In this document: in pieces, positions 7,974 through 25,401 of the stretch | How positions within the stretch are numbered: the stretch's first letter is position 1 | How the letters are laid out: each line of letters starts with the position of its first letter | NCBI GenBank assembly: GCA_965140785.1 | Contig: OZ223497.1 | Span: forward strand, 192,001 to 256,000 | Length of the DNA: 64,000 nt | Source of the DNA: an uncultured Ruficoccus sp. | GTDB lineage: Bacteria; Verrucomicrobiota; Verrucomicrobiia; Opitutales; Cerasicoccaceae | Direction: 5' to 3' | The notes under the pieces: generated by a model | Seen by the model: the letters and a program-made list of their open reading frames with translations, nothing else | Told to the model about the DNA's origin: nothing | Databases searched by the model: none | Made by a program: the position numbers and the translations under genes

Positions 7974-8439
7974 ACTCTGCCCGGCGGTGGGCGGGGGAGG
8001 TTGACGTGCCCTTGCCAATTGCCGGGAAATGCATTCCTTTGCACGCTTAGTTCATGATGGGAAAGCTTTTGCCGAAACGCCTCGGGCCAATCGCTTTGGA
8101 GTTCAGCCCGGCAAGTCCCGGGAAATTCTAAGCAACAAGAGCTCCAAGGCGGCTCCGCCGTCTCGGCTCCCGGTACCGGTTCAGACGCAGGAAACCACCT
8201 CACCGCCTCAGTCGGAAATCGTTGCCGCCGTCGTCCCTCACTGCCCGTAGTCAGAGCCTGCCTTGCGCAGGCTCTTTGTGTATCCGTATATGAATACGCG
8301 GAAGGAGTGTCCTGTGGCATTTGCATGTATGCCAGTAGGCAATGGAGGGGTAGCGGCCTTGCTGGCCGCGTACCCGCGTGTACTCGTCGATGAGATTAAA
8401 CACGTGCAGCTTGCCACCACCTTCGCGGCGGCGCGGCGC

Positions 8440-8609
8440 TGGCGATCCGCGCTCAGACCGCCATACTGCTTCTTCCAGCGGTGGTACGTCGGCGAACTGA
8501 CGCCGTACTCGAGGCAGATGTCATCTACACGCATGCCTTCGCTCGCGCGAAGAATGCGAATGATCTCTTCGGTCTTCGTTCGTCCTTTTTTATCTGATTT
8601 TGCGGTCAT
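8440..8609 (-). mobile_element. IS3-family OrfA N-terminal HTH fragment
   Basis: EEIIRILR..VDDICLEYGVSSPTYHRWKKQYGGL, then similarity is lost; no OrfB. Confidence 0.6.
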
Positions 8610-8701
8610 TTCTGATCGAAAAATCTATCAACAGCAATGGGCCAGTGTTAGGGGGGGGGCTGCCAGGTTCTCTTTTTCGATGAGGTGGTTTAAAGAGCAC
8701 G

Positions 8702-8790
8702 TACGGGCAGATGTAGCTGCGCGAGGTAAAACGCCTGAAGGAGCTTGAACGCGAGAACTCCGAGCTGAAGAAGCTGCTGGCCGACCGCAT
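8702..8790 (+). mobile_element. IS3-family OrfA C-terminal coiled-coil remnant
   Basis: Reads YGQM*LREVKRLKELERENSELKKLLADR, with an internal TAG. Confidence 0.6.
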
Positions 8791-8860
8791 GGACAACGGA
8801 GTGAGCGTTTGGGATGATTTACTCTTGGCTAAACAGACCGCTGGAGTTTTAATCGGTGGA

Positions 8861-10392
8861 ATGAAAACCATCTTTGTGCTGTTTGATTCCCTTAATCGGC
8901 ATACGCTGCCTCCGTATGGAAGCACGGTTATCGCCCCCAACTTCGAGCGGCTTGCGCAGCGCACGGTCACGTTTGATAACGCTTATGTGTGCAGCATGCC
9001 CTGCATGCCGGCCCGGCGGGATATGCACACCGGGCGTCCGAATTTCCTGCATCGCTCCTGGGGGCCGTTGGAGCCGTTCGATGACTCCATGCCGGCGATG
9101 CTCAAGGAAGCCGGCGTCTACACGCACCTGATCAGCGATCACTTCCACTACTGGGAGGAGGGAGGTGCTAATTATCATACGAAGTATAACTCCTGGGAGT
9201 GCATCCGCGGACAACAGGGCGATCCCTGGATCGCCCAGGTTCGCGACCCCGAGCCTATTGACGGCCCGGCCCTGCGTGAGGAGGCCTTAACTCTGCCAGG
9301 GGGCTCGGTGCGCCAGGATACCGTCAACCGCCAGGTCATGCGCGAGCCCGAGCAGTGGCCCATGTCTCAAGTGTTTTCACAGGCCGAAAAATTCCTCGAA
9401 CGCAATCACGGCGAAGACAACTGGTTCTTGCAGATCGAGGCTTTCGATCCGCACGAGCCGTTTTTCGTCCCCGCCGCTACCGGGAACTTTATCCCGAACA
9501 TTTCAACCAATACAACGGCCGTGATCTGGACTGGCCACCCTATCGCCGGGTCGAGGATTCCCCGGAGGAAGTCGAACACATCCGCCATACCTACGCCGCG
9601 CTGGTGTCGATGTGCGATGAAAAGCTGGGCAATCTGCTGGACAGGATGGACCGCTACCAGATGTGGGACGATACCCAACTGATCGTGGCCACGGATCACG
9701 GTTTTCTTCTGGGGGAGCATGATTGCTGGGCCAAGAATTGGATGCCATTTTATAACGAGATTGCCCACACGCCGTTTTTCATATGGGACCCGCGCAGTCG
9801 CATCCATAATGAACGCCGTGAAGCGCTGGTGCAACCGGCCATCGATATTGCGCCGACGGTTTTAAAGTCTTTCGGCCTCGATCCGACCGAGCGTATGACC
9901 GGCTGTGATCTGGCCGACACGGTCGCCGATGACACGCCGGTGCGCGAGACCGCGGTCTTTGGCCTGTTCGGCGCTCACGTCAATATCACGGATGGGCGCT
10001 ACGTGTACATGCGCGGCAACCCCGGCGGCCAGTCCAACCAGCCGCTTTTCGACTACACGCTCATGCCTGCTCATATGCGGACGCCGTTCCCTCACTGGAA
10101 ATTTGAGGCGCCGCTGGAGTCGGCCACCTTCGACTTTACCCAGGGTTGCCACGTCATGAAGCTGCGCACGCCGATGAGTGCGGACAAACGATTCGAGACA
10201 CAGCTTTACGACCTGAAAATCGATCCCGTGCAAGGGCAGCCGATCCGCAACGAAGCCGTTGAATCCCGTCTGCAGGCTGCGCTCAGCGAACATCTCGAGG
10301 AACTGGACGCGCCCGCCGAGCAGTGGGAGCGACTCGGTTTATCCCATTCCGTTCAGGCAGGCAGCACTTCAATGCCGAAGATCAACGCTTGA
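8861..10392 (+). pseudogene. Formylglycine-dependent (S1) sulfatase, split by one frameshift (possibly a sequencing error)
   Basis: MKTIFVLFDSL, CMPARR signature, FDPHEPF, TDHGFLLGEH; one extra C in the C4 run at 9469-9472 restores a single frame. Confidence 0.8.
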
Positions 10393-13300
10393 TTGGCGCT
10401 GACCTGCGGGAAGTGGAGGGTGAGGACCTCGCTCTTGATCGTGACGGTATAGCTGCGGCAAAGTGCGTGGTGCGAACCTCCGCTTTCGCTCCAGACATCG
10501 AGCTTGGACTCGACGGTCTCGCCGTTGATCGCAACATCGAACAGCCGCCAGCCGCGGCAGTCGGCGGCTCCGCCCACGCCGAACCAGGGCTCGGCGAAAT
10601 GGCAAACGATCCGGTAGCGTCCCGGCCCGGTGCGGAAGTGATACTTGAGCTGCTCGCGACCGTATCGGTAATCTCGATACATCCCTTGAAGTCCACTCCC
10701 GCGCACCGGTGTCATCGTTTCGCCCCGGCTGGCCAGATCGTCCGGTATGTTGTCAAAGTGACAGCCCCAGCTTTCCCAGCCCCAGTAGGCTTGCTCCCAT
10801 GGTTTGTCGGCTGCCCAGACCAGTCCGCGGGGATCCTGATAATCCACCTGCGCGCCACAGTTGACGCGAAACAGGGCCTGTCCCGTCGTTGGCTCAATGT
10901 CTTTGGGATGACCGATCCAATCATTGACGGTGCCGTCTTCGGGCAGGTGATCGAGCACGATCAGGTCCTCGGCCACGACGCGGCCCGCCTCGCGGGCTAC
11001 GGCGTGCAGAATGTTCGTTGCGGGTTCCACATTCTGCCATTCGAAGTGACACCCTCTGCCGGGATTTTTGCGTACGCCGAGTGAGCGCTTGCCCACGCCG
11101 TTGTAGAGCTCCACCTCCTCGCAGTTACTGTACACAATCGACACTGCGTGGTGCGGGTATTTTCCAGCGGTCCGGCCAGGTATGGGAGACTATGTAAACC
11201 ATCGGATCGGTGGCCGGGTCAGTATAATTGGAACGAAACAGGTAGTACAGATCGCTCGGCTGATGCCAGGCGGTGAGAAGACCTTTGTTATTGATCGGTC
11301 CGATCTGGCCGTTGCCCGGCCCTTCGTAGTTCTCCGCCGTGCGGCCCGGATTCGGGAAGCTGTTGAATACCCAGTGAAAGTGCCCGACGGCTTGGTCGCG
11401 CGTTTGCTCGGCCAGACGGATCTTGGTCTCCATCGCATAGCAGGCCCAGCTTTCCGAGCGGTCGTTTTCATTGCCGATGTAGGGAATCTCCGTGTGGACG
11501 CCGAAGGCCCGCCAGGCCCCGTACTCGCCGACGAGTTGGCGGCTGGGCAAGTCGTAGTCGTGGCAACTGCCGCCGTACGTGCCGCTCCATTCCTGAGGCA
11601 CATTCCAGTCGGTTCCTTTGCCCCCGTTGCACGTCGTGGTGAGGCGCCACGCCGGGCTGGTCGGGTCCAGTTCACGGATGAGGTCGCGCATTTCGCGGGC
11701 GAAGTCCTCGGGGATGGCGGACTCATTTTGGAGGCCCCAGAGGATAATGCACGGATGGTTGCGACGCTCCTTCACCCACTCGGTGACGATGCGTCGGTGG
11801 TTGGCCCGGAAGCGGTCATTGTCGGCCCACATGTGCGAACCGATCTGCGTCCAGCAGACAATCCCCGCCCGGTCCCAGTGGTCGTAATAGCGGAGGTTGT
11901 GAGGGTGATGGGCATCACGAAAAGCGTTGAACCCGGCCGCCTTCATCATGGCGACATCGGCGTCGATCTGCGCATCGCTAAAGGCATGGTCGCAGCCGAG
12001 CAGGTTTTCGTATTCGCAGGTGCCGTTGAGGAAGAGGGGCTCGCCGTTGAGCTTGAGCACGCGTGGTTCGTCCTCAGTGAGGGCCTCGGCTTCAGCAGCG
12101 GGCAAAGGCTCATAGGTCGGGCGAGCGAGGTTGAGTGGTTTGCTCAGGTCCCAGTTCGGCCCGCGGATGCCGAAGCAGGTCTCGCTGCGCTCCCCACAAG
12201 ACGCCCTCGGGCGAACGCAGCTCAATGATCAGGCGATGCAGGTAGGGATCGATCTCGCGCCAGCGATGCGGATGCAAAATCGCCGGGACGTCCCACTTCA
12301 ACTCATGCCGCCCGGCCTCCAGTTTCAGGTGTTGCTGCCACTGGTGGAAAAAAATTGTGCCGCCGTCGTTCTGGACTTCGCAGAAGAGTTCGGCCTGTCC
12401 GGCTTTGAACGTGTCTATCGTGATCGAAGCCAGCAGCAGGGCACGGTCTTCAGCACTGGTATCGGGGCGTTGCTCGATCACGACACCCATGGGGGCCAGC
12501 CGGGCGGGTGATTCCTCCGCATGCTCCAGGATGTTTGTCAGGCCATTGTTGGATGCGGTGCGTTCCTCCAGCCCGGTTGAAATGATCTCCCCATGCCGTG
12601 AACTGCAAAAGGTGTTATGGTCGGCATCGGGTTCCAGGATCGTCGGCCACTCCAGCCAGCGCAGGCCGAATGTTGTTTCGGTCTGGTGGCTAAGTTTTCC
12701 GTCTACGTAAACTTCCGTTTGTGACAGATGCAGGGCAGGGGACGCCGGGCACCACAACTCGGGGTCGGCGATCGGCTCAAAGGTAAAATCAACCACCGCC
12801 TGCTCTCCCTCGACCCACAGGCTCCGCTCGTCCTGCCGCAGGCATGAGCCCGCCGGAGAATATATCCGTTGGTTAACACGGATCTCCCGCGCCTGCCCGT
12901 CGGGGTTGAGGACGGTCACGCGGCTGGCCACCGTGGCGCTCGCCTTGGAAACCTCCGGTGTCAGCATGTGCACCCCGAACGGCTCGATGCGCACCGGCCC
13001 GCAATACTCCAGCCAGGCCGGGCGGCTCATGCCGAAGGGCTGCGTGCCCTCGGTATTGGGCGCGCCCCAGCAGCCGCCACAGACAAAGGGGAGGTCGTCG
13101 ATCCCCTCTGGATGGTGAGCCCGTACCGCCAGGAGATTCTCTCCGGCTTGGAGGGCCGGCGTCAGGTCAACCGTGAACGTCGTCCTCCCCCCGGCATGGG
13201 AGCCGCAGTGCCGACCGTTTGCATAGACGTCTGCATAGCTGCCCACGCCTTCAAAAAAAGCATACACCCGCTCCTGTGAATCGCGTGGTTCCCAGATAAA

Positions 13301-13555
13301 ACTTGTCTGATACCAGGCCGTGCCATGCTGGTTGCCGTGGGAATCCACCCGATAGCCGTGATAGTCGTCCCAATTGTGCGGGACGCGTACCGCCTTCCAG
13401 CCCTGGCCGTTTGCCCTTTCGCTCGCATAGCTCGCCTTGTCTCCCAAAATGGAGTACCAGTGTGCCAGCTGCTGCCTGGGCTTGCCGAAGGGCGCAGGGG
13501 TGGGGGCTGTTGCATGTCCCCGGGGCAGTGTTTCCGATTCAAAACATGTATTCAC
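10353..13555 (-). pseudogene. GH2 glycoside hydrolase with C-terminal malectin-like domain, split by two frameshifts
   Basis: Three consecutive ORFs: VPHNWDDYHG/FEGVGSYA; FRDAHHPH/WGLQNES/VGEYGAW; YSNCEEVELY, HFAEPWFG, RLFDVAING. Junctions at about 12193 and 11150. Confidence 0.75.
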
Positions 13556-13594
13556 ATACTAGCAGTGGCGGTATGATGCCCAATAGCGCCTTTG

Positions 13595-13608
13595 CTCATC
13601 ACGATGAG
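13595..13608. promoter_or_regulatory. Putative LacI operator, copy 1 (CTCATCACGATGAG)
   Basis: Near-palindrome 40 bp upstream of the GH2 start; matches three other sites. Confidence 0.65.
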
Positions 13609-13700
13609 TTTGGTTTTCAAGGAGTACCCGTGTCCTTGGGCATACTCCAGGGCCTGATTATTCTCCAGGCGCGGAGGGCTCCGACCTGACTATGGACGGG

Positions 13701-14618
13701 TTAGCAGGGTTGTTTGTGTTTCTTACTCCGCACCAGACGCATCGAAAGGAGTCCGGCGGCAGCCAGGCCGAGCAGGAGGGAAACGCTTGAGGATTCGGGG
13801 ATTGAGGACTGGCGGATACTTTCGATTTCCGGAGCAGAGAGAGCACCCGAGGAGCCGCTGGTGCTGCCGTAAATCTGGATATCGCTCAGGGTGGTATCGA
13901 TGATCGCTCGATTGTTGGCGGATGTCCCTGCGTTGTAGGAGTTACCCAGCACAATCGTACTTGAATCGTCCATGGCCAGACCACTTGTATTGCCTACGCT
14001 GCCGGATGCATTGCCGAGCAAGCTGGCGGCATCCGTTTCGGTTCCGAAGTAAAACTTTACAGCATCGTTAAAAGAAGCCTGGGTCGAATCGATAGCCATG
14101 GCAAAAAAGACCCAACCTTGATTGAGCATGGTGTAAGTTCCGCTATCTTTACGGGCCGTAGTGCTTTCGACTGTGTTTTGAATTCTGAGGTAGTCGTCAT
14201 TCAGGTATATTTGCATAACCGCGCTCCCGTCGCCACTGGCGATAGATAGAAGACGCCCTCCCGCCTGTGCAGAGCTCATATTGATCCAGCCCGTGACCGT
14301 ATAGGATGTGAGTCCGTCAAATGTCGTACCCGTTGAGGTGTTACTCGCACGCTGGTTATAGTTGCTCTGGATAGCGCTATCGTACAGCGCGATACCGGTC
14401 CCGCCAACACCGGCACCATCGGCGGTCCATTTCAGGCCCACTGAAGTCAGATTTACGCCGTTGGCGCTGGAGTCGTTGATCGTCGTTGCTTCGGTTCCAG
14501 CTGGACCGTCATTCAGTTGATAATGGGCAAGTAATGTCTGCGCGTGAACCGCCCCTGCGCTGAGTGAAAAAGACGCGAGGGCAGTGATGATGAGTTGGGT
14601 AATAGGCATACGTTTCAT
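13701..14618 (-). CDS. PEP-CTERM surface protein with LamG-like jelly-roll domain
   Basis: Signal peptide; SYTVTGWI, WVFFAM; C-terminal IPESS-hydrophobic stretch-basic tail. Confidence 0.75.
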   Translation of the reverse strand: MKRMPITQLIITALASFSLSAGAVHAQTLLAHYQLNDGPAGTEATTINDSSANGVNLTSVGLKWTADGAGVGGTGIALYDSAIQSNYNQRASNTSTGTTFDGLTSYTVTGWINMSSAQAGGRLLSIASGDGSAVMQIYLNDDYLRIQNTVESTTARKDSGTYTMLNQGWVFFAMAIDSTQASFNDAVKFYFGTETDAASLLGNASGSVGNTSGLAMDDSSTIVLGNSYNAGTSANNRAIIDTTLSDIQIYGSTSGSSGALSAPEIESIRQSSIPESSSVSLLLGLAAAGLLSMRLVRSKKHKQPC

Positions 14619-14667
14619 AAGGCAACCATTGTTATCGCCTGTGCTGGAAAGGGCGAAATATAGTTTA

Positions 14668-14681
14668 CTCATCAAGATAAG
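14668..14681. promoter_or_regulatory. Putative LacI operator, copy 2 (CTCATCAAGATAAG)
   Basis: In the divergent promoter between the PEP-CTERM gene and lacI (autoregulatory position). Confidence 0.6.
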
Positions 14682-14717
14682 CGCATAGCTTCATTGGATA
14701 CTTAATTCTTCAGTTCT

Positions 14718-15788
14718 ATGGCTAACCAACGAACGATAGCGAAAATGGCCGGGGTCAATCAGGCGACGGTTTCCTTGGCTCTGCGCAATGATCCCTCCAT
14801 CCCCCCGAAAACACGGGAGCGCATCCGGCGGATCGCGGAAGAGATCGGCTACAAGCCGAACACATATGTGTCCTCCCTCATGTCCCAGATCCGCTCGGGG
14901 CGGCCGCCTCAGGACAAAGGCTGCATCGCCATTCTCGTCGGGGCGCATAAGCCCGTGTCAGGCTCTGCGGACAAATGGCCGGGCAAGGTGGTTTACCAGT
15001 TGCAATACCGGGGGATGACGCAACGCGCCGAAGAGCTGGGGTTCAAAACGGAGTTCTTCTTCCTCATGGATACGGACATGAGCATGAAGCGGGTGAACGA
15101 TATTCTGTGCGCGCGCGGGATCACGGGGGTGGTGTTGGGAGCGCCGAATGTTAACGAGGCCGACCCCACGCAACTGTCGTTGGATTCGCTGGCGATTGCC
15201 ACCATTGCCTATACCTGGAAGGGGATTGACCTGGACCGGGTCACTTCCCACCACCGTCATAACGTGCAAATGGCTTATGCGCAGTTACGCGAACGCGGCT
15301 TTAAGCGCATCGGCATGTGCCTGCCAACGGAAGCCGCCACGGGCGTCGATACGAACTGGCGGGCCGGCTACCTGATCGAGCGGGAGAACACACCTGCGCG
15401 GCACCGCATCCCGCTCTTTGTCGGCAGGCCCGATCAAACCCCGCGGGCCAAGTTTACGGCCTGGCTCCAGAAATGGAAGCCCGAGGCGATCGTCACCCTC
15501 TTGGGGCATGAAAAGCGCTGGCTGGACGAACTGAAGATTCCCATCCCCGAGGAGCTTTCTGTGGTTTGCATCAACCGGCTCCCCAGCAGTGAGTTTTCCG
15601 GTACCCAAGAGAATCACGAGATGATCGGCGCCGCCGCGATCGACCTGGTGGCGACCCGATTGATTCACAACGAGTACGGCCTGCCGAAATTTCCCAAGCT
15701 GATTCTCTTTGAAGGCACCTGGGTGGAGGGCAAAACGATAGGAAAGCCTCCACGCCGTCGAAAGCAATGGCCGGAGACCCCGCAGTAG
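14718..15788 (+). CDS. LacI-family transcriptional regulator
   Basis: IAKMAGVNQATVSLALRN HTH, GYKPN, C-terminal GAAAIDLV..GTWVEG. Confidence 0.9.
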   Translation: MANQRTIAKMAGVNQATVSLALRNDPSIPPKTRERIRRIAEEIGYKPNTYVSSLMSQIRSGRPPQDKGCIAILVGAHKPVSGSADKWPGKVVYQLQYRGMTQRAEELGFKTEFFFLMDTDMSMKRVNDILCARGITGVVLGAPNVNEADPTQLSLDSLAIATIAYTWKGIDLDRVTSHHRHNVQMAYAQLRERGFKRIGMCLPTEAATGVDTNWRAGYLIERENTPARHRIPLFVGRPDQTPRAKFTAWLQKWKPEAIVTLLGHEKRWLDELKIPIPEELSVVCINRLPSSEFSGTQENHEMIGAAAIDLVATRLIHNEYGLPKFPKLILFEGTWVEGKTIGKPPRRRKQWPETPQ

Positions 15789-15851
15789 GGGGCAATCGCT
15801 GGCGCATCCTCCGGACGACGTGGAGTTTTCCCAGTGTCAGGCGTGCGTGCT

Positions 15852-18053
15852 TTAAGGCTGAGAGGCAAGCACACCCGAATGGTAAAGCAGGTTTTGGTAC
15901 TCGATCTCGTCGAGCACGACGTGGTTGCCCATGCCGTCGATCACGGGCTTGCCGTCGCGCATCAGTTCGAACTCAGGCGTGAAGGTTTCGCCCTCGGGCA
16001 GCGGGACCTTGAACGACACGATGCCCGCTTCGGCTTGCTTGCGGTGGACTTCGCCGCCCACACGGATGATGAGTTCTCCAGGCTCCTTGAGAAAGGCGAG
16101 CAGCGCGATCTGGTTCAGCGAACCCATCTCCGGGCCACCGTACTGCTGCACCAGTTTCCATTTGCTGCCATACTTCGGCTCCAACTCCGTGTGGTGGATG
16201 CGATAGCTGTAGTAGAGGACGTCGCGGATGATCTCCGGCTGCTGGCCTGTCTTGAACCACTGGATGTAGTAGGTGTTGATGTCGTGCAGGGCGTAGCCGA
16301 CACGCGTCGAAGGTGCCATCGCCTGCTCGGAATAGTCCGACCAGGTGTTCAGGATGGCCCAGTCCGCGTTCCCTTCGATGGCAGCCTTCCAGGTGTCCAG
16401 CAGAGTGTCGAAGTTGGCCGACTCCCAGTAGATTTGTCCCCGTGTGCGTATGTCGTGCGAAGCGATGGGCGCGCACAGCGTCTGTGTGTACGGGCGTGCC
16501 TTGTCCAGCCAGCCGTATTTTCCGGGTGAGCGGGGTCCCCAGTGGGACAGCGCGTAGGAAAACTCTCCGAACTCCTCGACGGTGTCGGTCGAGTTCAGTT
16601 GGGAGAGGAATGCGGTGCGAATTCCGCGCTTTTCCAGGTCGGCCATTTCCTGCTTCCAAAACTCGGCCGGCCATTGCTCCGGACGCCACTTGCTGAAGAG
16701 CATGCGGCCATCCTCGGTACGATAGACACCGGGCATTTCATTCAAGCGGGTGAAAATCTCCGATTCGGAATATTTCTGCGCACTCTCCTTGCCCGGAAAA
16801 ATAGAAGGAATGACCTTGAAATGCGGATCCACCAGCGGCGCCGCTTCGATCAGGGCGAAGGAGATAGTGTTGAAGTGCTTCTGCCCGCCCCGGTTGGTGG
16901 GATAGGAGAAGATATCGGTAATGAAACCGTCCAGCCCCATGGTATCGGCGATGCGAATCTCCTCTTCGGCGGCGCGAACTTTTTCCTCGTGGAGGGTTAG
17001 CCCGGACTCCATCGGGGGGCGGGGCAGCGGGGTGTACATCAGCTTGGTTCCGGCATCCGTGCGGCGAGGGTCTACCGAGACGGACGGGTTGAGAGTTTTG
17101 AGGGCATAGTAGTTCAGGCCCGGGTCGTCCGAGCTCCAGCGCGAGCTGTAAATTTCATAAAAATAGGCGAACACCTTTTTCTCACTCTGCTGTAAAACCT
17201 CGAGCGGTGCCTGCTTGAAGGGGAGCCAGGCCGTGCGGTCGGCATCCACCTGTCCGGCCATGAGGATATTATCCACCGCCCAGGTTCCCCTGCGGTTATT
17301 TCCACCGGAACTGGTGAAGGAGAGCTTCACGGGTGTCTCAGCCGGGAGCAGTTTGACCACGCCGAGCTCGATGGGTTTGGGGTGCCTGGAGTCGTCAAAC
17401 AAAACGACATTGGCGATGCGGTCCTCGTCCACGGTCACGCCGATGCGGTACCAGTGCCCGGCTTTGAGCGGGCGGTGCAGCCAGGCCTGCTGGCCCTCGT
17501 CGGCCTCGACGATGACGCCGTTGTCATTGCGCAGGCGGATGGCGAGTCCGTCGCCCGCCGGGTCGGTCAGCTCGACGAAGAGGCCCGGTCCGTCCGTGTC
17601 CTCGGCTGTCTCGCCCAGGCGAAAGTCAAAGCCGAGATACACCTTGCCGGCCGGGGGTGGGGTGAAGGTAGTGCTGAAGCCGACGCCTTCGCCGGTTTCC
17701 TGACTTTCGTCGCGCAGCAGGAACCCTTTCCCCGTGACCTGGTTGTTGCGGAAGGCCGACTCCGCCGATTCCTCCAGGCTCACTTCTACACCCGGGGTAA
17801 AATCGTTCTCCATCACCCAGGGGTAGGGTGGGATGTCTCCGGCGGGGTACTCATCGAAGTGTTCCAGGGGGAGGTTTTCGGTCGTGCCCAGCTCCATCTT
17901 TTTTTCCGGCTGGGCGGTGGCCGCAGAGGACGCTTTTTCGTGAGCTGAACCGGCGGCAGGGGGTTGGCCGGATTCGGCGCATGCCACGAGCAGGGTACTG
18001 ATCAGCCCGCAGGCTGCAAATTGGCGAAGGGGGTGGAGGTGTTTTCTGAGCAT
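15852..18053 (-). CDS. Lipoprotein with N-terminal beta-sandwich and GH71-like (endo-alpha-1,3-glucanase-like) domain
   Basis: Lipobox LLVAC; KKVFAYFY, GLDGF, TWKAAIEGNADW..LNTWSDYSE, DVLYYSYR. Confidence 0.6.
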   Translation of the reverse strand: MLRKHLHPLRQFAACGLISTLLVACAESGQPPAAGSAHEKASSAATAQPEKKMELGTTENLPLEHFDEYPAGDIPPYPWVMENDFTPGVEVSLEESAESAFRNNQVTGKGFLLRDESQETGEGVGFSTTFTPPPAGKVYLGFDFRLGETAEDTDGPGLFVELTDPAGDGLAIRLRNDNGVIVEADEGQQAWLHRPLKAGHWYRIGVTVDEDRIANVVLFDDSRHPKPIELGVVKLLPAETPVKLSFTSSGGNNRRGTWAVDNILMAGQVDADRTAWLPFKQAPLEVLQQSEKKVFAYFYEIYSSRWSSDDPGLNYYALKTLNPSVSVDPRRTDAGTKLMYTPLPRPPMESGLTLHEEKVRAAEEEIRIADTMGLDGFITDIFSYPTNRGGQKHFNTISFALIEAAPLVDPHFKVIPSIFPGKESAQKYSESEIFTRLNEMPGVYRTEDGRMLFSKWRPEQWPAEFWKQEMADLEKRGIRTAFLSQLNSTDTVEEFGEFSYALSHWGPRSPGKYGWLDKARPYTQTLCAPIASHDIRTRGQIYWESANFDTLLDTWKAAIEGNADWAILNTWSDYSEQAMAPSTRVGYALHDINTYYIQWFKTGQQPEIIRDVLYYSYRIHHTELEPKYGSKWKLVQQYGGPEMGSLNQIALLAFLKEPGELIIRVGGEVHRKQAEAGIVSFKVPLPEGETFTPEFELMRDGKPVIDGMGNHVVLDEIEYQNLLYHSGVLASQP

Positions 18054-18093
18054 AAGGTCTATGGTGGGCGTTATCGGTTCAAGGGGGCGGAGA

Positions 18094-19626
18094 CTATTGG
18101 GCGCTCCATGCATCCGTGCGAAAAGGTGCGGCGGGAAGCCCGCTTTCGTCGAACAGGATCGGGTGCGGCCCGGCACGCCAGGCATAGCGCAGGGCGACCG
18201 GTTCAGCAACCTCGGCGCTGCTCACCCGTATGCGGTTTCCCTGGAGGCTGGCCTGGGCGGGGTGAAAGACATGGTCCGCCCCAGCCAGTTCGAAGGCTCC
18301 CCACGTATCCGGTGAGTCCAGTAGCACGAGGTTTCCCTCACTGGCGACCTGCACGAGCATGGCGTCGCCATCCGGTGTGGCCGCGATAATCCGCGGGCCA
18401 TGTGAGCGGATGTCCTCTCCGAATATATCCGCGCGGATCACCCGCAGGGCGCGGTCGGCGAAGGCTTGCTTGTTAGTGGGATGAACTTCCGTTCCGTCGC
18501 AGAGGTCGATCGTGACGACAAGCGAAGTGTGCGAAGTGTCTTCAACGGTACGGGCCTGTCCCTCGCGCAGAACGGGCCAGCGGCTGGTATCGTCCGTCCC
18601 GAAGGGAGGAAGCTGGACAATGATAAAGGGCAAGTTTTCGTTCCGGGCGCGCTGGCGCCAGCCATGGATCAAGCCGCGCAACAAAGCGGCATACTCCTGG
18701 GGGTATTGCCAGTTCGATTCTCCCTGATACCAGATGACGGCGCGCACGGCATATTCCAGCACCGGATAGGCCATGCCGTTGTACAAGCTGAAGGGCATGC
18801 GGATGCTCCCGGGCTCTCCGTCGGGCTTGCGCGGCTGTTTGTTCTTAAAAGGGACCCCGGTTTGTTCGGCTTCGGCCTTGGCCTGTTTCCATGCCGCCAA
18901 TTCCTGGTTGTAGGCTTCCGCCTTTTGCGGATAGGCCGCCGCCGCGCGGTCCCAGCGCTCCGTCACCACCGCGAGCGAATCGTCCGTGGCCAGTCCCTCC
19001 GGACTGATCCAGGATTCGATGCGGGTGCCGCCCTTGGTGCAGTTGATCAGTCCCTGGGGGATGTGGTTCTCGTTAAAAAGCTCGCGCGCGAAAAAGTAAC
19101 CGATGGCGGTGAACCGCTCCACTGTGTCCGGGCTGCAAACCACCCACTTCCCCTTCGGCTCATACTGGGGCGTGCTGCTGGGCCGGGGGATGACCTTGAA
19201 GTGGCGAATCTGAGTGAAGTCCGCGGTCGCTTTCTCCTGCTCAAGATTATCCGCCAGGCGTACGGGGCGCTCCATGTTCGACTGACCGGCGCAGAGCCAG
19301 ACGTCTCCCACCAGAATGTCGTGGCTGGTCACCGAGCCCTGGTCACTGCTGATGACGAGTTCGCCCGAGTCGCCGGCCTTCATCGCGGGCAGCGTCACGC
19401 GCCAGTGGCCGTGCGCATCGGTCGTAGCCTGGACCGAGCTGTCGCCGAAAGTGACCCGGACCACCTCCCCGGGGTCGGCGCTGCCCCAGACCGGGACCGG
19501 GCAGTTGCGCTGGAGGACGGCATGATCTCCGAATAGGCTGGACGGTTCGGGCTTGGCCGAGGATGAACACATCGAAGCCAGGAGGCCGAGCATGATCAGT
19601 GACGAAACTTTGGACAATGGACGCAA
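18094..19626 (-). CDS. Sialate O-acetylesterase (SASA) family protein
   Basis: DHAVLQR, GDVWLCAGQSNME, GGTRIESW, WYQGESN, VHPTNKQ; signal peptide. Confidence 0.88.
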   Translation of the reverse strand: MRPLSKVSSLIMLGLLASMCSSSAKPEPSSLFGDHAVLQRNCPVPVWGSADPGEVVRVTFGDSSVQATTDAHGHWRVTLPAMKAGDSGELVISSDQGSVTSHDILVGDVWLCAGQSNMERPVRLADNLEQEKATADFTQIRHFKVIPRPSSTPQYEPKGKWVVCSPDTVERFTAIGYFFARELFNENHIPQGLINCTKGGTRIESWISPEGLATDDSLAVVTERWDRAAAAYPQKAEAYNQELAAWKQAKAEAEQTGVPFKNKQPRKPDGEPGSIRMPFSLYNGMAYPVLEYAVRAVIWYQGESNWQYPQEYAALLRGLIHGWRQRARNENLPFIIVQLPPFGTDDTSRWPVLREGQARTVEDTSHTSLVVTIDLCDGTEVHPTNKQAFADRALRVIRADIFGEDIRSHGPRIIAATPDGDAMLVQVASEGNLVLLDSPDTWGAFELAGADHVFHPAQASLQGNRIRVSSAEVAEPVALRYAWRAGPHPILFDESGLPAAPFRTDAWSAQ

Positions 19627-19731
19627 GGGTTTAGAGGTTACGGGAATAACGATAGATACGGGGTGAATAGATCAAAGGCGGGATAAATATTATTCTTCGA
19701 GAAAGGCTGTTCGGTTTCCAATCATTCCGGG

Positions 19732-19745
19732 CTTATCACGATGAG
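19732..19745. promoter_or_regulatory. Putative LacI operator, copy 3 (CTTATCACGATGAG)
   Basis: Upstream of the esterase-GH71 unit; identical to copy 4. Confidence 0.7.
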
Positions 19746-19788
19746 CTGGATGGAGGGTTTTCTCTGCGAAACCTCATGCGCCCCGCCT

Positions 19789-20517
19789 TTATTGCGTTCG
19801 GGCCGCTACGGGTTTGAATATATATTCGGGGATGACAAACATGGAGAGACCGTTGTCGTCCGGCATGGAGGGGACCGGTGTGGCGGTGGTGTCCTGAATG
19901 ATCATGAAGTAGCGATAGCGGGGCCTTAAAAGCATGTTTGTCGAAAACTTGACCCGGTTGTCCGAGTCGCGGAACCCGGCCACCTGGATGTTCGTATGGG
20001 CTCCTTGATTCTGGAGCTTGGGGACGGCGACTTCACCCGGACTGAGCAGAAACATTTCGTCCTCGATCTTGATCCCGATCTTGTAGGGGACGAAGCTACA
20101 GAGGACCATGCTGCCGACGGGGTAGTCCTCGCGGCTGTCGTTGATCGCCTTGAGGTAGTAAGCGTTTTCTCCTTTCGGGGTGACGACGACCAGGTTGCTG
20201 TCGGACTTGAGCCCGGAAGCGGCCAGATTTGCCACGGGCAGGTAAGGCGGGGCACCGGGCTCGGTGCTTTCATTTTTGCGATACAGCGTCAGGTCTTTGC
20301 CCGAAGCCAGCGTATAGTATTTTGACGGTTTTCCAAATGCGATGGAGGCGGGGACCATTTCGCTGTCCGCCTGGCAGTAGAGCCTATCGATCGCCGCTGG
20401 CCAACCAATGAGCCGGTACTGGCCGCCGTGTAGAGCGACGGTAAGAGCCAGATAGAGGCCGGTGAAAAAAAGGCGTCGTTGCACGGCGTATTTGCGGGGG
20501 TTAAACATCGTTTTCAT
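19789..20517 (-). CDS. Exported hypothetical protein, coupled to the PilX-like gene
   Basis: Signal-like N-terminus; overlaps the upstream gene end by 17 bp. Confidence 0.6.
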   Translation of the reverse strand: MKTMFNPRKYAVQRRLFFTGLYLALTVALHGGQYRLIGWPAAIDRLYCQADSEMVPASIAFGKPSKYYTLASGKDLTLYRKNESTEPGAPPYLPVANLAASGLKSDSNLVVVTPKGENAYYLKAINDSREDYPVGSMVLCSFVPYKIGIKIEDEMFLLSPGEVAVPKLQNQGAHTNIQVAGFRDSDNRVKFSTNMLLRPRYRYFMIIQDTTATPVPSMPDDNGLSMFVIPEYIFKPVAARTQ

Positions 20518-23500
20518 TCAGCCAGCGGAAATGGATCACACGGAAGCGGCGGCCCGCGGAAGGGGCGGCGGAGTCGATCCCGACCGGGGTCCGCTGAACG
20601 ATGGCTTCGCACCAGGTGCGGCTCTCGACCTTGCCGGTTACGGGGTTCACGGCATCGCCGTAGCAGCGGATGGTGAAGGTGTCCGAGCGCACCGTCAGCA
20701 GCGGGGCGAGGGCGGTCAGAATGTCTGTCTGCGACAGAAAGCCCGGGGCATCGGTAGAGAAGTACCCTTGGCTGTTTTCGCGGTACTGCGGTGCCAGCAC
20801 ACTCCAGGTTGACGTGACCACCTGGCGCTGTGCTCCGGAGTCGATAATGCCGAGCGGGTCTTCCACATTGCCATCAAAGGCCGGGGTCACGGCGGAGCCC
20901 AGGCTTTCCTGGAAATCCGCCTGCCGCAGGTCTTCGTTGATGTCGGGCAGGCCGTCCTCATTGACATCCACATGGTCGATGGCCGCCTGCAGGGTGCCTT
21001 TCAATCGGGTGTCATGCTGATCGACAAGGACGCGTAGCCGTGCATTGCCGCTCGGAGCCGGGTCCGGGTTTGGCTCCGGGTCCTCGTCTGTCAGGGTGCG
21101 GTTGACAAAGCTGGCCAGCGAGGGGAAGGGGCCGCGCAACTTTACCTGCTCGACGATTTCCTCGGCCAGAGCATCGAGCTGCGCATCGCTCAGGCTACGG
21201 AAGCCGCTCCACATGCGCGGGATGTTGCTGGTGTCGGTGTTGTCACCGATGTCCCCGCTGCGGTAGTCCTGAAAGGCCCAGTGGGTGATTCGCGGGAAGG
21301 CGTTGTCGAGCTTTTCCCCGGCCCCGTCCGGATCGTCGATGATGTCCGACAGGCCGCCCAGGAGTGCGCGCCAGGCATTGACCGAAGTCGAGTTAACATT
21401 GAAGGCCCCGTCCACGGCGAGGTAGCCGGCCGCCTCATCCCGCTCAAGAATGGCATCGACTTGAAGCGGCTCATTTACATCCAGAAACAGAGGGACGATA
21501 CGCGCGTTGGCAAACGGTTCTGACCAGTCCGTCGTGCCGGCGGGGATGGACGAGAAAAAGTACTGGTCCCAGAGCGCTTCGTTCACCCGGTAGGTGTAGT
21601 CGGCCTCATCCAGGGGCATGAAAGAGTTGGACCAGGAGTTGCCGATGACATAACTCGGGATCGTGTAATCCTGCGGGTTGTCGTTGGACCCGAGGTAGAG
21701 GGTGTTGCGCAGGTTCGCGTGGCGCAGGTCGCCGAGAGAAAAAATGCTTTCGCGGGGAACCGAGAACAGTACGACTTCATGCTCGCCGTCTTCATTGACG
21801 GAACGCCCGGCAAAGGCGGCATCTTCGTCACCGGGATCGTAGGTGATGCTGTTGGAGCCCATCGCGCCATTGACAAATGCGCCGCTGAGCCAGTTGCCGC
21901 CACCGTTCCAGAGCGTATAGGCAATATTCTCATCGCCGGGAGTTTTTAGGGCCCGGTAATTGAAATCCGCCAGCAGCCGCCAGCCATACCCGCCGGAGCT
22001 TCGCGGCAACAGGGTGCGCACACCGCCGATTCGGGCGCCGATGTGAGTTTCCGGAATCGTATCCCGAATTTGAGAGCCACTGGTGACTGTCCCTGAGCCC
22101 ATATGCGTGATGCCCCCAATATAAGCTTCCCCGCCATCGGGCGTGACTGCATACACATTTAAGGACACGTCGCCGCCACTGTCTATACCCATGGAGTAAG
22201 GAACGGGATTCGCCGGGTCCGTTTCATCAATCAAATCTTCCCGCTTATAAATGCCGTCCGGGTAGGTGAAATGAGCGGGCGAATTCGCGTTGTCATTCTT
22301 GAAGTTCCGGGTCAGGGGAATCATGAGAAAGCCGTTGGACTCACGATAACCCGGCGCCATCACCTTGGCCTCGTCGGGCATGTCTGAGGCATGATAAAAT
22401 CCATCAAGCACGAAATCATCGTCGGCCTGCATGCTGAGGACTTTGACCTCGCCCGGCGCGAAACCGACGGGCTCCTTTGTCATGTAGCGAACATAGCGTG
22501 TATTCGTGCCCGTTGCGTCCGATACGTTCTCCTCCACAAAGTACCGGTTGACGCTGTTGTCCTTGCTCAATCTGAACCGCAAATGGTTTTTGGACTGTTC
22601 GGGCAGGTTGTTGCTTTCGAAGATATAATTGGTGGGGGCGAGAGCGACGTCGTACGGGTTATGCAGGACGACGGCGGTCCAGATGATGGCGTGCAGCTGA
22701 TAGTCGGTCGTAGCGGGGATCTGTTTGAAATAGAAGCCATAGGCCAGGTCGTCGGCGAGCAGAACCGGATAGACACCCTGGGTGGTGTCGGTCTGGCCGC
22801 GCACGCTGATGATGTTTCCGCTGACGGCATCCTTGAGCCCGTAGTAGGAGCTGAGCAGCTCCCAGCGGGGGGCGGGCTTGTCGTCACCGGAATCGTTGAA
22901 CACCTTTCCCGTCAAGGGCTGGTCGTCGAGGCCGCGGGTGAGGTCGGTTTTGAGCCCGCCCTGGAGCGCGTTCGTGAGGAGCCCGTCGGAGGTCAGGGTG
23001 TAATCGTGAAAACCGGTTTTAACGATGCCCGGCGTATCGGCGGCGTTTCGGTCGATCAGCTCCAGCAGGCCGCGGGAAGCGGCCCGGCTCAAGCTGCTGC
23101 GGTCCGCTTCGTCGTCATAGTCCAAGCCCAGGCCGTCCTCGAGGACCTCGGGGGCGATCTTCTGCACGGCGTGAAGCCGGTTGAAGGTGTCCTCGGCGCT
23201 CGGGTTGGCGGCCAGCTCGTCGGGCGATTCGATCATATTGAGCTTGGCCTTCACCCCCTCGTCACCGATCCAGTAGGCGTAGTGGCCGAAGACATCTCCG
23301 TCCCCGCCGGCGACCTCGACCTTTTGCGCGGTGATCGCGTAGGGGTTGTCATTGCCCGTGGTATTGTCGCTGTCGGCGGTGCTGTCTCCGACCAGGGTGA
23401 CCCTGTCTCCGGCCCATGCATGGGTATGCCAACCGGACATATTCGCCCCGCTTTCCTCGGGGGCTCCCGAGACCAGCCAGCCCAGGAAACGCATTTCGCC

Positions 23501-23902
23501 GGTGCCGTTCGCGACGGGCTCATTGGACCATACGCCGGTCAGGTATTCTTTACCCTTGGCGGGGGCTCCCTGCGAATTACTCAGGTCGGTTAAGATGTCC
23601 GCGCGGGCTGTCGTGCGTTGGTCCGGTCCCGCCATCTTCTGTAACTCACCGATGGCGATATTGAGGGCGAGCAGTGCGTTTTGTTCGGATTGGCTTTTGT
23701 ACTGATGGTTCTGGGTGGTGGCGATCTCGACCTGAATCAGGGTGGAGATCCCGACGATCAGCAACATGACAAACGCCATGAGCGACAGCGCCAGGACCAG
23801 GGCGAATCCGGGCGACGGGCGCTTGGAAGCCCCGGGAGCGTCACCCGGCAGTAACCGGGGGTAGCGGGGCCGTTCATCACGAAGGGGTAAAGAGACTGTC
23901 AT
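20501..23902 (-). CDS. Large PilX-like / Verru_Chthon cassette protein A-like protein (1133 aa)
   Basis: Class III-like leader G|FALVLALSLMAFVMLLIVG; GELQKMAGPDQR, YWIGDEGVKA, GAFNVNSTSVNAW, RGPFPSL, VRSDTFTIR.YGDA, GRRFR..FRWL. Confidence 0.7.
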   Translation of the reverse strand: MTVSLPLRDERPRYPRLLPGDAPGASKRPSPGFALVLALSLMAFVMLLIVGISTLIQVEIATTQNHQYKSQSEQNALLALNIAIGELQKMAGPDQRTTARADILTDLSNSQGAPAKGKEYLTGVWSNEPVANGTGEMRFLGWLVSGAPEESGANMSGWHTHAWAGDRVTLVGDSTADSDNTTGNDNPYAITAQKVEVAGGDGDVFGHYAYWIGDEGVKAKLNMIESPDELAANPSAEDTFNRLHAVQKIAPEVLEDGLGLDYDDEADRSSLSRAASRGLLELIDRNAADTPGIVKTGFHDYTLTSDGLLTNALQGGLKTDLTRGLDDQPLTGKVFNDSGDDKPAPRWELLSSYYGLKDAVSGNIISVRGQTDTTQGVYPVLLADDLAYGFYFKQIPATTDYQLHAIIWTAVVLHNPYDVALAPTNYIFESNNLPEQSKNHLRFRLSKDNSVNRYFVEENVSDATGTNTRYVRYMTKEPVGFAPGEVKVLSMQADDDFVLDGFYHASDMPDEAKVMAPGYRESNGFLMIPLTRNFKNDNANSPAHFTYPDGIYKREDLIDETDPANPVPYSMGIDSGGDVSLNVYAVTPDGGEAYIGGITHMGSGTVTSGSQIRDTIPETHIGARIGGVRTLLPRSSGGYGWRLLADFNYRALKTPGDENIAYTLWNGGGNWLSGAFVNGAMGSNSITYDPGDEDAAFAGRSVNEDGEHEVVLFSVPRESIFSLGDLRHANLRNTLYLGSNDNPQDYTIPSYVIGNSWSNSFMPLDEADYTYRVNEALWDQYFFSSIPAGTTDWSEPFANARIVPLFLDVNEPLQVDAILERDEAAGYLAVDGAFNVNSTSVNAWRALLGGLSDIIDDPDGAGEKLDNAFPRITHWAFQDYRSGDIGDNTDTSNIPRMWSGFRSLSDAQLDALAEEIVEQVKLRGPFPSLASFVNRTLTDEDPEPNPDPAPSGNARLRVLVDQHDTRLKGTLQAAIDHVDVNEDGLPDINEDLRQADFQESLGSAVTPAFDGNVEDPLGIIDSGAQRQVVTSTWSVLAPQYRENSQGYFSTDAPGFLSQTDILTALAPLLTVRSDTFTIRCYGDAVNPVTGKVESRTWCEAIVQRTPVGIDSAAPSAGRRFRVIHFRWLNENDV

Positions 23903-24026
23903 GTCTGTGGGGTAGGGAAGTCTGTGCTCCTTTGCAGGCCATGGTGGGTTATGTCAAACCTCGCTTGAGCGGATAAGATTAACCCATTGATAGAGCGATA
24001 CCGGATAAAAGACAAACCGGGCCTGA

Positions 24027-24040
24027 CTTATCACGATGAG
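24027..24040. promoter_or_regulatory. Putative LacI operator, copy 4 (CTTATCACGATGAG)
   Basis: 125 bp upstream of the PilX-like gene; shares the flank CTGGA..GGGTT with copy 3. Confidence 0.7.
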
Positions 24041-24073: not shown

Positions 24074-25282
24074 CTACCGTGTATTCACCGGGGCGAGAGC
24101 CTTGCGGAGCGTTTCGACTCCGGCTTGCAGCATGTCGTCCACGGCATGCAGGGTTCGGGTGACGAGTTCCCGGCTGGCCTCGGGCTCCATGATCTGCCGC
24201 ATGGCCGCGTCAGCGACCGCGTCGGCATCGACCTCGTCAATTTCCAGGATGCAGGACTCCAAGCCGATGTCTCGCCACATCTGGCCCTTGATCGAGTCGG
24301 TCGGTTGGCGCAGGTAAATCACAGGCACGCCCTGCCGCAGAGCCAGGATAGGCGAGTGGCATTCAAAGCTGACCAGGCTTCGGGCCTGCGCATAGACGGC
24401 GGTGGCTTCGTCCGGTAGCCAGTAACGACGTCGTACGTGGACGCGTGCCTTCACATCGTCAGGCAACGGATCGTAGAGTAGGGCGTCCATGATATCGACC
24501 TGGTAGGTCATCTCCGGGCACAGGAGCACGTCCAGTCCAGTTTCGCGGACGATGCGGATGATGGCGGCGCGCATTTTGCCGTGGTCCTGTTCTGCGTATG
24601 TGTCATTAACGGCATCGCGTCGGCGATGCTCGTCGTTTACATCAAAGCCGTGTATCTGGTGGTAAGGCGTGTAGCGCAGGCGTGGAACCATGCAGACAAA
24701 GCCACCGGGCCGCAGGCCGGTCTCCCGCAGGTAGGCGGATGCCTTGGCATCGTCCCGCAGGTCACAGGCAAAAGTGGCGTCCGGGCAGAACGCGACTTCG
24801 GGGCCCACAATGCCAGCCTCTTTTACATGCTGGATGGAAGTCGAATCTCGGGTCAGCAGAAACTGAGCAGGATTGGCGGCCTCGATGTGCTCCGGGCGTG
24901 GCCGCTCCGCCGTTATGCCGAAAAAGCCGTAGGGCTTGTCCGTCATGCGGTGCCAGGCGGACGCTTCCCGGTAGGCGCAAAACCCCGGTCCCGACCCATG
25001 CAGGAATAAATCCGCTTGCTCCCAGGCGGCTTTTACCTCTTGGGAAACCGGGCACCCCTCCGCATCCGCGTCCCCTTGCACAATTCGAAGGTCCGGGAAA
25101 TAGTGGCGCAGCAGCTCATCGGCTCCCCTGCCGAGGTTGCGGGGCCACAGGACCACCTCGGCTTCCGGATAAAACCGGGCCAGGGTACGCAGTAAACCGG
25201 GGGTGTGCGCGATGTCTCCGATATTGACCGACTGCCAGGAGGAACGCAAAAGCAGCACGGGCGGTCTGTTCTTTTTAATCAT
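24074..25282 (-). CDS. Polysaccharide pyruvyl transferase family protein
   Basis: SSWQSVNIGDIAHTPG, LHGSG, RDSTS, PDATF, ECHSPI, KGQMWRDIGL. Confidence 0.75.
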   Translation of the reverse strand: MIKKNRPPVLLLRSSWQSVNIGDIAHTPGLLRTLARFYPEAEVVLWPRNLGRGADELLRHYFPDLRIVQGDADAEGCPVSQEVKAAWEQADLFLHGSGPGFCAYREASAWHRMTDKPYGFFGITAERPRPEHIEAANPAQFLLTRDSTSIQHVKEAGIVGPEVAFCPDATFACDLRDDAKASAYLRETGLRPGGFVCMVPRLRYTPYHQIHGFDVNDEHRRRDAVNDTYAEQDHGKMRAAIIRIVRETGLDVLLCPEMTYQVDIMDALLYDPLPDDVKARVHVRRRYWLPDEATAVYAQARSLVSFECHSPILALRQGVPVIYLRQPTDSIKGQMWRDIGLESCILEIDEVDADAVADAAMRQIMEPEASRELVTRTLHAVDDMLQAGVETLRKALAPVNTR

Positions 25283-25401
25283 TAGCTCGCTTGTTTTTAG
25301 CTCTCGAGAAGGGTGGAGAGGGCATAGCTACCGCAGGACCACGCTACCGGCTTCGGTAGGCGCCGCCTGAATGATGCAGTCTTTACTGGGTTATAATATG
25401 C

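Follow-up and report, generated by a model that had tools for sequence, protein, structure and literature searches.

A predicted LacI-type regulon joins glycan-degrading enzymes with a giant pilin-headed protein and its secreted partner in an uncultured Ruficoccus

We analysed a 64,000-nucleotide stretch of DNA from an uncultured Ruficoccus sp. (the window; contig C26:192001-256000 of the 4.36-Mb, 50-contig genome G000). Judged by the source names of its protein relatives, the genome belongs to Verrucomicrobiota, close to Opitutales and Puniceicoccales. It carries a putative LacI-family regulon over a GH2/malectin enzyme, a PEP-CTERM-like protein, lacI itself, a SASA esterase with a GH71-like lipoprotein, and a giant protein with a pilin-type head. 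This regulon is well supported because its operator is locus-specific and conserved across genomes. Besides the operator, its locus specificity and its conservation, we observed that the giant and a secreted partner form a fixed two-gene module, and that this module is placed in sugar clusters. Algal and host glycans have major degraders in Verrucomicrobiota and their relatives, which manage largely without SusC/SusD machinery, and the locus offers a concrete handle on how these bacteria seize and import glycan polymers. The giant family is very large, has no Pfam model, and is wired by a defined operator to glycan-degrading enzymes. The genes and operator sites, numbered from the first letter of the window, are:

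8789..10392, plus strand: sulfatase, in two frames in the assembly; a regulon member in the congeneric genome G002
10353..13555, minus strand: GH2 enzyme with DUF4982 and malectin, resembling NF049877 beta-glucuronidase/beta-L-arabinofuranosidase; in three frames in the assembly
13595..13608: operator site 1, CTCATCACGATGAG, 40 bp upstream of the GH2 start (13555)
13701..14618, minus strand: PEP-CTERM-like, LamG-like secreted protein; the longest open reading frame (ORF) extends to 14675, and translation probably begins with the Met at 14618
14668..14681: operator site 2, CTCATCAAGATAAG, in the promoter region between the divergent PEP-CTERM-like and lacI genes, 37 bp ahead of the lacI start codon (ATG)
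14718..15788, plus strand: LacI-family repressor of 356 residues; PF00356 at 46 bits (cut-off 27), PF13377 at 40.8 bits (cut-off 26.5)
15852..18053, minus strand: GH71-like protein whose leader is of the lipoprotein type; translation probably starts at Met53 of the long ORF 15852-18209; PF03659 at 46.9 bits over residues 592-757
18094..19626, minus strand: SASA-type carbohydrate esterase of 510 residues with a signal- or lipoprotein-like leader; PF03629 at 77 bits
19732..19745: operator site 3, CTTATCACGATGAG, 106 bp upstream of the SASA start (19626)
19789..20517, minus strand: secreted partner of 242 residues, no family; its start overlaps the giant's stop by 17 bp
20501..23902, minus strand: giant protein of 1133 residues; its N-terminal helix is of the pilin type and lacks Glu at +5 (leader ...KRPSPG/FALVLALSLMAF); body in no known family
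24027..24040: operator site 4, CTTATCACGATGAG, 125 bp upstream of the giant start (23902)

A sequence-only reading of the window had placed a 14-bp near-palindrome in front of the GH2 gene, the PEP-CTERM/lacI pair, the esterase and the giant. We recovered all four sites at these coordinates, each in a promoter region. Their consensus is the palindrome CTYATC-RM-GATRAG, which occurs at the regulator's own promoter as well, where site 2 is likely an autoregulatory site for lacI. With up to two mismatches the 14-mer gave seven strand-matches in the window against 0.63 expected, and none of 100 shuffles reached seven. The exact sequence CTYATCACGATGAG has three copies genome-wide, all at the locus. 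The pattern CTHATCRMGATRAR, which covers all the sites seen, has four matches in the 4.36 Mb of G000, and all of them fall within a 10.4-kb stretch of the locus. Since CTHATCRMGATRAR was derived from these sites, the informative part is its near-absence elsewhere. The reversed pattern, used as a control, gave no match in any of the genomes G000, G002 and G322, and the pattern itself is specific to the locus in all three. Commonness of the motif across the genome, which the sequence-only reading had named as the danger to its proposal, was therefore not what we found. A sigma-70 promoter scan was uninformative (1 site against 3.4 expected).

The putative regulator has the build of its family, with a LacI-type helix-turn-helix at the N-terminus and a periplasmic-binding-protein-like effector domain at the C-terminus. 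Its orthologues in the matching loci are 79% (G002) and 46% (G322) identical. In G002 the proteins are 68-83% identical and the gene order is kept (GH2, PEP-CTERM-like, lacI, GH71, SASA, partner, giant); four of the five pattern matches in that genome fall in the orthologous locus. The site before lacI (CTCATCAAGATGAG) and those before SASA and before the giant (both CTAATCACGATGAG) stand as islands of identity amid diverged spacers. The gene upstream of the giant differs in G002, yet the operator remains with the giant. The GH2-proximal operator position is degenerate there, and two divergent sulfatases flank CTCATCGCGATGAA, an almost perfect palindrome centred on CG.

The genome G322 belongs to another family of the same order, and its giant is 56-59% identical to ours. 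Giant, partner, GH2/malectin and lacI are contiguous in it, with beta-helix proteins, SASA, a PEP-CTERM protein, a GH13-like enzyme and GH71 nearby. Six of its seven pattern sites lie within C1:54173-77709. Pattern sites precede GH2 (CTTATCGAGATAAA), lacI, a beta-helix gene, a gene for a 333-residue protein, a second GH71 with a divergent BD-FAE esterase, and a GDSL esterase. Its lacI has two upstream sites, one of them the near-match CTTATCACGATAAT, which is outside the pattern. A site before lacI is present in all three genomes, and giant, partner, GH2/malectin, lacI, SASA and GH71 occur together in these three genomes of two families, despite rearrangement. That one LacI-type operator joins the carbohydrate-active enzymes (CAZymes), the PEP-CTERM-like protein and the giant, as first proposed, agrees with its locus specificity and with the orthologous positions kept in the two other genomes. 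A scan of the genome contigs for related loci returned one distant locus, L031, without the motif.

The enzymes of the regulon were described at the outset as including an esterase-GH71 unit. The operator upstream of it stands, but the single unit resolves into two genes, SASA (18094-19626) and the GH71-like gene (15852-~18053). SASA is 68% identical to its G002 orthologue; the GH71-like protein is 80% identical, in an alignment that begins at residue 46. Both carry export leaders, while the GH2 enzyme and the sulfatase have no visible leader. The many esterases, GH71 copies and sulfatases point to an esterified, perhaps sulfated, glycan as the substrate of the regulon.

The PEP-CTERM-like protein is 69% identical to its G002 orthologue. 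Read from the sequence, it has a signal peptide and, at the C-terminus, IPES (not PEP), a hydrophobic helix and a basic tail. Its match to TIGR02595, over residues 273-294 of 305, scored 10.2 bits and stays under the cut-off of 16, and Laminin_G_3 scored 21.2 bits, under its cut-off of 27.6. Exosortase PF09721, which PEP-CTERM sorting calls for, is found over cut-off at three places in the genome.

The giant and the gene behind it form a fixed two-gene module, which had been overlooked in the first reading. We found 17 giants in the genome by tblastn. When all genome ORFs were searched with 11 partner queries, the partner family appeared at 15 ORFs, each directly downstream of a giant and none elsewhere. 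Thus 15 of the 17 giants have a partner; of the other two, one continues past the end of contig C46 and the other, on C47, is in fragments. The partner is translationally coupled to the giant. Partners share a Sec leader and a body of ~210 residues at only 13-19% identity. The nearest named look-alike of the 242-residue partner is the periplasmic AlgF, at a score of 0.77 that makes it a lead only, and a word-indexed search with the partner profile returned five proteins, none with a name.

The pairing extends to other genomes. The partner profile has 22 matches in G002, 28 in the genome G007 and 34 in G322. Judged by coordinates and assuming a giant gene of 3.3-3.7 kb, a partner match lies just downstream of all 14 listed G002 giants and all 10 listed G007 giants. 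In the subfamily of the paralogue locus L012 the pair is kept in 8/8 loci. Across 45 pairs drawn from 10 loci, the pairwise identities of giants and those of their partners were uncorrelated (rho 0.07, P 0.63). The giant family itself counts 5812 representatives of 50%-identity clusters at E <= 0.001 in a profile search, and 3661 at E <= 1e-30. The named members among the relatives retrieved for our giant all come from Verrucomicrobiota and are called hypothetical, or PilX/PilV by automatic annotation; an orthologous giant is on record from Coraliomargarita algicola. Genomes of the same family hold up to 48 first-look giant candidates each. In this order the module is a real and widespread part of sugar clusters that has gone unstudied.

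Most paralogues sit among sugar genes. Within ~8 kb on each side, 13 of the 16 other paralogue loci carry CAZyme, carbohydrate-binding module (CBM), sulfatase or sugar-transporter genes, the exceptions being L008, L015 and L016. The genes at these loci include GH36, GH42, GH26, GH39, GH88, GH130, GH4, alginate lyase and heparinase-like enzymes, as well as SASA, GDSL, MFS_2, SSF and ABC. Some form same-strand arrays: a beta-helix gene, giant and partner at L005; giant, partner and GH26 at L012; GH130 and giant at L009; giant, partner, a PEP-CTERM gene and MFS_2 at L001. A LacI gene lies within 10 kb of 13 of the 17 giants against 3.95 expected, and none of 1000 random placements reached 13. The same test gave 7/27 against 2.9 in G007 (P 0.018) and 10/33 against 3.9 in G322 (P 0.002). 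This LacI enrichment is our only statistical statement on the surroundings; the CAZyme counts stand without a CAZyme-density baseline. Among seven loci in seven other genomes, with giants 41-51% identical to that of L012, six have LacI or AraC and six have CAZyme/CBM genes, of families that differ from those at L012. Together with the paralogue loci and the LacI enrichment in three genomes, these loci bear out the expectation that homologues of the giant lie in sugar clusters.

A specific partnership of the giants with PEP-CTERM lectin-like proteins, also proposed, did not emerge. About 95-101 PEP-CTERM-like genes are present in the genome by regular expression, and their closeness to giants was not significant, either within 10 kb (11/17 against 7.3 expected, P 0.06) or within 3 kb (6/17 against 3.2, P 0.08).

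We then consider what the giant is. GspK has a pilin fold with an inserted alpha-domain and caps the GspI-GspJ-GspK trimer of the type II secretion machinery (T2SS). Like it, the giant has a prepilin-type leader followed by a hydrophobic N-terminal helix without Glu5. In each of the 15 paralogues examined, a basic leader precedes G/F-A-L-[IV]...LSLMAF and position +5 is not Glu, and all 15 have one N-terminal hydrophobic segment (one paralogue with a further window at 339-358). The giant matches NF037980 (GspK) at E 1.2e-5 and TIGR02600 (Verru_Chthon_A) at E 1.6e-5, each over residues 32-95 only. Aligned by hhalign against 38 canonical GspK, residues 27-95 of the giants fall on GspK 8-76 with a probability of 81% (E 1.2e-5); against one single GspK sequence the result was not significant. 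The nearest language-model clusters in the ESM Atlas are the Verru_Chthon A (the nearest named), TadG-like and T2SSK families. The giant thus reads as a GspK-type head on a body of no known family, only the first ~70 residues being demonstrably GspK-like. For the class III leader and PilX-like character first ascribed to it, these N-terminal ~70 residues stand, but it fails the GspK and Verru_Chthon-A cut-offs and has no neighbouring pilin genes. Since it misses both NF037980 and TIGR02600 by a wide margin, it is a demonstrated member of neither family. A pseudopilin nature of the giant is plausible.

The body was compared between paralogues and orthologues. Residues 500-700 and 950-1050 differ most between paralogues, with 9-20% identity to distant members. 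Against an orthologue 80% identical overall, residues 500-700 are 76-86% identical, and the variable stretches are 76-92% identical over most of their length and 66% at 1001-1050. Being variable in paralogues and kept in orthologues, these stretches follow the pattern that specificity determinants would show. Pfam, run on all 30 members of the giant alignment, gave no consistent family. As for the machinery, the genome has one complete T2SS operon, gspG-H-I-J-K-D-E-F on contig C40, with its own 374-residue GspK, and it has one prepilin peptidase, five secretins and 66 N_methyl matches. PF21687 matches the canonical GspK on C40 only, and PF03934 matches the giants at E 0.3-0.4.

Our preferred reading, towards which we lean by a modest measure, is a LacI-type regulon for an esterified, possibly sulfated glycan in which the giant acts with its partner as an alternative pseudopilus cap. 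From sequence we infer repression and induction, prepilin processing, filament incorporation and ligand binding along the following course. The repressor (14718-15788) most likely binds CTYATC-RM-GATRAG at the four promoters, and a sugar would release it from these operators. Five units would then be switched on together: GH2/malectin, the PEP-CTERM-like surface protein, lacI, SASA with the GH71-like lipoprotein, and giant with partner. The single prepilin peptidase of the cell would cleave the giant, which would sit at the tip of the C40 T2SS pseudopilus, or of a related type IV filament, as an alternative cap particular to its cluster. The ~1000-residue body and the partner would act in the envelope, where they may recognise the glycan for capture and hand-over, or the exported proteins of the cluster. 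Glycan capture by the giant is put forward as an open hypothesis. Precedents are an alginate-induced cluster with a pulG-like pseudopilin in another member of the Verrucomicrobiota (PMC13274419) and the binding of dextran to pili-like fibres in Planctomycetes (PMC5394234).

Several results weigh against the giant being such a cap. It scored 25 bits against the NF037980 cut-off of 130, and 23 bits against the TIGR02600 cut-off of 332.3, where the best paralogue reached 39.1 bits over profile positions 1-63 only. No Pfam T2SSK match to the giants passes, so that the giant stays under the whole-protein GspK cut-off and has neither the T2SSK nor the T2SSK_1st domain. A profile search of all PDB sequences with the giant gave no match at E <= 10. 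The C-terminal profile comparison of giants and GspK was not significant (E 0.009, probability 4%); it sets the invariant G-x-F-N-[VI]-N-S-T-S...A-W of the giants on G-x-x-N-x-N-T-A...V-L of GspK. As far as these comparisons go, nothing past the first ~95 residues is shown to be pilin-like. N_methyl pilin genes lie within 10 kb of 3 of the 17 giants against 4.4 expected, unlike the known tip operons, and our giant is flanked by a pyruvyl transferase and the partner instead of standing in a gspH-I-J operon. For the regulon, the site before the giant in G322 is a weak match only, TTTATCGCTATAAA. The GH26/GH39/SASA neighbours of L012 recur in the congeneric genome only and at 0/7 loci with 41-51% identical giants; CAZyme content varies by locus, and the link between subfamily and substrate is therefore not tight at this identity.

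Other explanations must be set beside this reading. The 14-mer could be a short repeated element instead of an operator, its genes being mere neighbours without shared control. An identical 19-bp stretch, CTTATCACGATGAGCTGGA, is present at two of the copies in G000, as repeat copies would share. However, in three genomes orthologous promoters keep the sites at matching positions between diverged flanks. Moreover, the 14-mers are palindromic, lie beside lacI with one in front of it, and are almost confined to the locus in each genome. We regard a repeated element as very improbable. A different question is what the giant does. As an alternative T2SS tip it could, with its partner, recruit the SASA, GH71-like and PEP-CTERM-like proteins through the secretin without binding any glycan. 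The evidence for the pilin head is common to this explanation and to a glycan-related cap, and there is one canonical T2SS for 17 giants. The export leaders of SASA and the GH71-like protein also fit. The available part of PMC13274419 describes an alginate-degrading member of the Verrucomicrobiota with a substrate-induced cluster holding a pulG-like pseudopilin with 67 paralogues, and its authors proposed T2SS export of alginate lyases from that cluster. Against this, some giant clusters hold mainly transporters and cytoplasmic-type enzymes, and two proteins of the locus itself, GH2 and sulfatase, show no leader. A role confined to secretion is in our view unlikely.

About equally unlikely is that the giant is no filament subunit at all. 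Its N-terminal helix could be an uncleaved anchor that tethers to the inner membrane a periplasmic scaffold, a glycan-binding or glycan-processing protein, or a sensor, working with the partner. This would suit a GspK resemblance limited to residues 27-95, the lack of pilin genes near the giants, ~1000 residues without a known domain, and a partner with an ordinary Sec leader and a periplasmic protein, AlgF, as its look-alike lead. It sits less well with the prepilin form of the leader, basic residues then G/FAL, in 15/15 paralogues, and with the nearest language-model clusters being Verru_Chthon A, TadG-like and T2SSK. The G-x-F-N-[VI]-N-S-T-S...A-W motif of the giants also resembles that of GspK, in a match that is not significant.

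The cap proposal can be carried further. The giant and the partner of each sugar cluster might be an exchangeable cap and its helper on a common, retractable type II/type IV filament that imports polysaccharide through a secretin, which we hold to be distinctly less probable than either role just discussed. If it were true, the filament would bind its cognate polysaccharide outside the cell and draw it into the periplasm, a glycan import built like DNA uptake. The cap and filament would be the functional counterpart of SusC/SusD in Verrucomicrobiota and their relatives, and would put a name to the molecule behind the glycan-binding fibres of Planctomycetes, in which, according to the available part of PMC5394234, dextran binds pili-like fibres.

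The question of SusC/SusD was addressed in the whole genome. Neither the window nor contig C26 has a TonB-dependent receptor or a SusD. The genome is poor in receptor barrels, with two matches, on C46 and C9 only, and SusD is on C9 only; the early observation that the window lacks them is thus borne out by the genome search. Adjacent genes for a SusC-like receptor and a SusD-like protein, the mark of a Bacteroidota-type polysaccharide utilization locus (PUL), are absent from the locus. At G000:C9:17130-20563, on a 44-kb contig, the only SusD match of the genome adjoins one TonB-receptor match; either these two form the only pair of SusCD type in the genome, or the contig is foreign. The numbers of giants were also compared with those of receptors. 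Over all 31 related genomes, which are not independent of each other, rho was 0.05, and over the 24 genomes of at least 2.5 Mb it was -0.24 (P 0.25). Giant numbers do not fall as receptors rise among the 31 relatives, and no significant anticorrelation was seen.

Frame changes interrupt two genes of the assembly. GH2 differs from the intact G002 gene by one inserted base near 12195 and another near 11139. In a second public run (X2), whose contigs have a depth of 7-10, the surplus base at 11140 is missing and an additional C, which would restore the sulfatase frame, follows 9468. The run that is the probable source (X1) has a depth of 2, and its unitigs are broken at 9468/9469, 11139/11141 and 12193/12194. 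Since the X2 contigs are corrected at two places and the X1 unitigs break at all three, the frame changes in GH2 and sulfatase are most likely low-coverage assembly errors. That the two genes are true pseudogenes we set aside as the less likely reading, as the second run lacks two of the three changes and the low-depth unitigs of the source run break at all three.

The sulfatase at 8789..10392 has no intact operator upstream within the window. In G002 the sulfatase adjoins the giant with its own operator, and the locus in the window is therefore rearranged. Just upstream of our sulfatase, at 8238-8790, lies a remnant of an IS3-type transposase (HTH_Tnp_1, 8238-8609, minus strand). Its sequence is multi-copy, with X2 depth up to 585 over 8500-9023 and many contig loose ends at 8655-8784, and a lone CGATGAG half-site is found by it near 8677-8683. 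On the other side, upstream of the giant at 24074-27240, are a polysaccharide pyruvyl transferase, a second PEP-CTERM-like protein (25402-26232) and an AraC regulator; none of these genes has an operator copy. Further along, the minus strand at 38135-47797 encodes a 3220-residue ORF with GH81, six F5/8 type C (galactose-binding-like) domains and GH3, a very large beta-glucan-type hydrolase. A second sugar-type cluster at 48728-55142 holds a LacI of 419 residues, a LamG-like protein, a PulG-like N_methyl pseudopilin of 302 residues and an 836-residue protein with weak CBM_4_9/NosD matches, with an operator variant (two mismatches) at 51104.

Some paralogue loci have features of their own. At L006 (G000:C43) the palindrome CGTTACCTGTAACG occurs at 11227, 11332 and 15864, twice between the giant paralogue and a divergent esterase and once before a pectate-lyase-like gene, and may be a second local operator. 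Shared palindromes upstream of 14 other giants were searched for: L006 was the one case with at least three copies at up to two mismatches, and none had at least two copies at up to one mismatch. FAD_oxidored (PF12831) genes recur beside giant and partner modules of several genomes, at L004, L005, L048, L049, L050, L052 and L053. At L001 (G000:C4:108700-128200) the closest giant paralogue (35-40% identical) follows a second protein, of 1143 residues, with no family and a weak GH5 match. Unlike the rest of the genome, most ORFs there do not reach the third-position GC threshold (GC3 >= 0.62), a hint that L001 is of foreign origin.

In our literature search no paper turned up that treats a GspK-headed giant paired with a secreted protein and controlled by sugar, nor any that mentions the name Verru_Chthon. 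The available parts of PMC13750104 and 10.1101/2023.11.21.568195 hold nothing bearing on the giant family.

Compared by sequence alone, the giants share with GspK/XcpX (NF037980; PF21687, PF03934) the prepilin-like leader, a hydrophobic helix that lacks Glu5, and sequence that matches the profile along the first ~70 residues. In contrast to GspK, our giant is three times longer, under every family cut-off and outside a gspH-I-J-K operon, and giants come in 17 copies, paired with a secreted partner and mostly in sugar clusters. The Verru_Chthon cassette has four genes, including prepilin-type B, C and D proteins. Its protein A (TIGR02600) is of similar size, comes from the same phylum and matches over the N-terminal 60 residues, but the giants score 23-39 bits against a cut-off of 332 and the locus has no four-gene cassette. 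Modular minor pilins with grafted binding modules are described, in the available parts of PMC8179133 and PMC9934059, for Streptococcus sanguinis PilB and the glycan-binding PilA-PilC complex. The likeness lies in the idea of a pilin head with a large extra module that gives the filament a binding function. As far as those sources go, such pilins have recognisable modules (vWA, lectin) and stand in the pilus operon of a monoderm, whereas the giants have a body without a known domain and genes scattered in sugar clusters under sugar regulators.

At the level of the locus, the likeness to Bacteroidota PULs is a co-regulated cluster of glycan-degrading enzymes and envelope proteins for glycan acquisition; the difference is that our locus has no SusC/SusD pair and that its envelope component is the giant with its partner. 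The mucin-utilisation loci MUL1 and MUL2 of Akkermansia are co-regulated, and MUL2 includes pilus-type proteins, according to the available part of PMC13174399; we liken them to our locus on make-up, not on protein homology. LacI/GalR repressor-operator systems share with our locus a helix-turn-helix and a sugar-binding domain, an even palindrome whose centre is CG or close to it, and a site before the regulator's own gene. From these systems ours differs in one unusual point only, the pilin-headed giant in the regulon.

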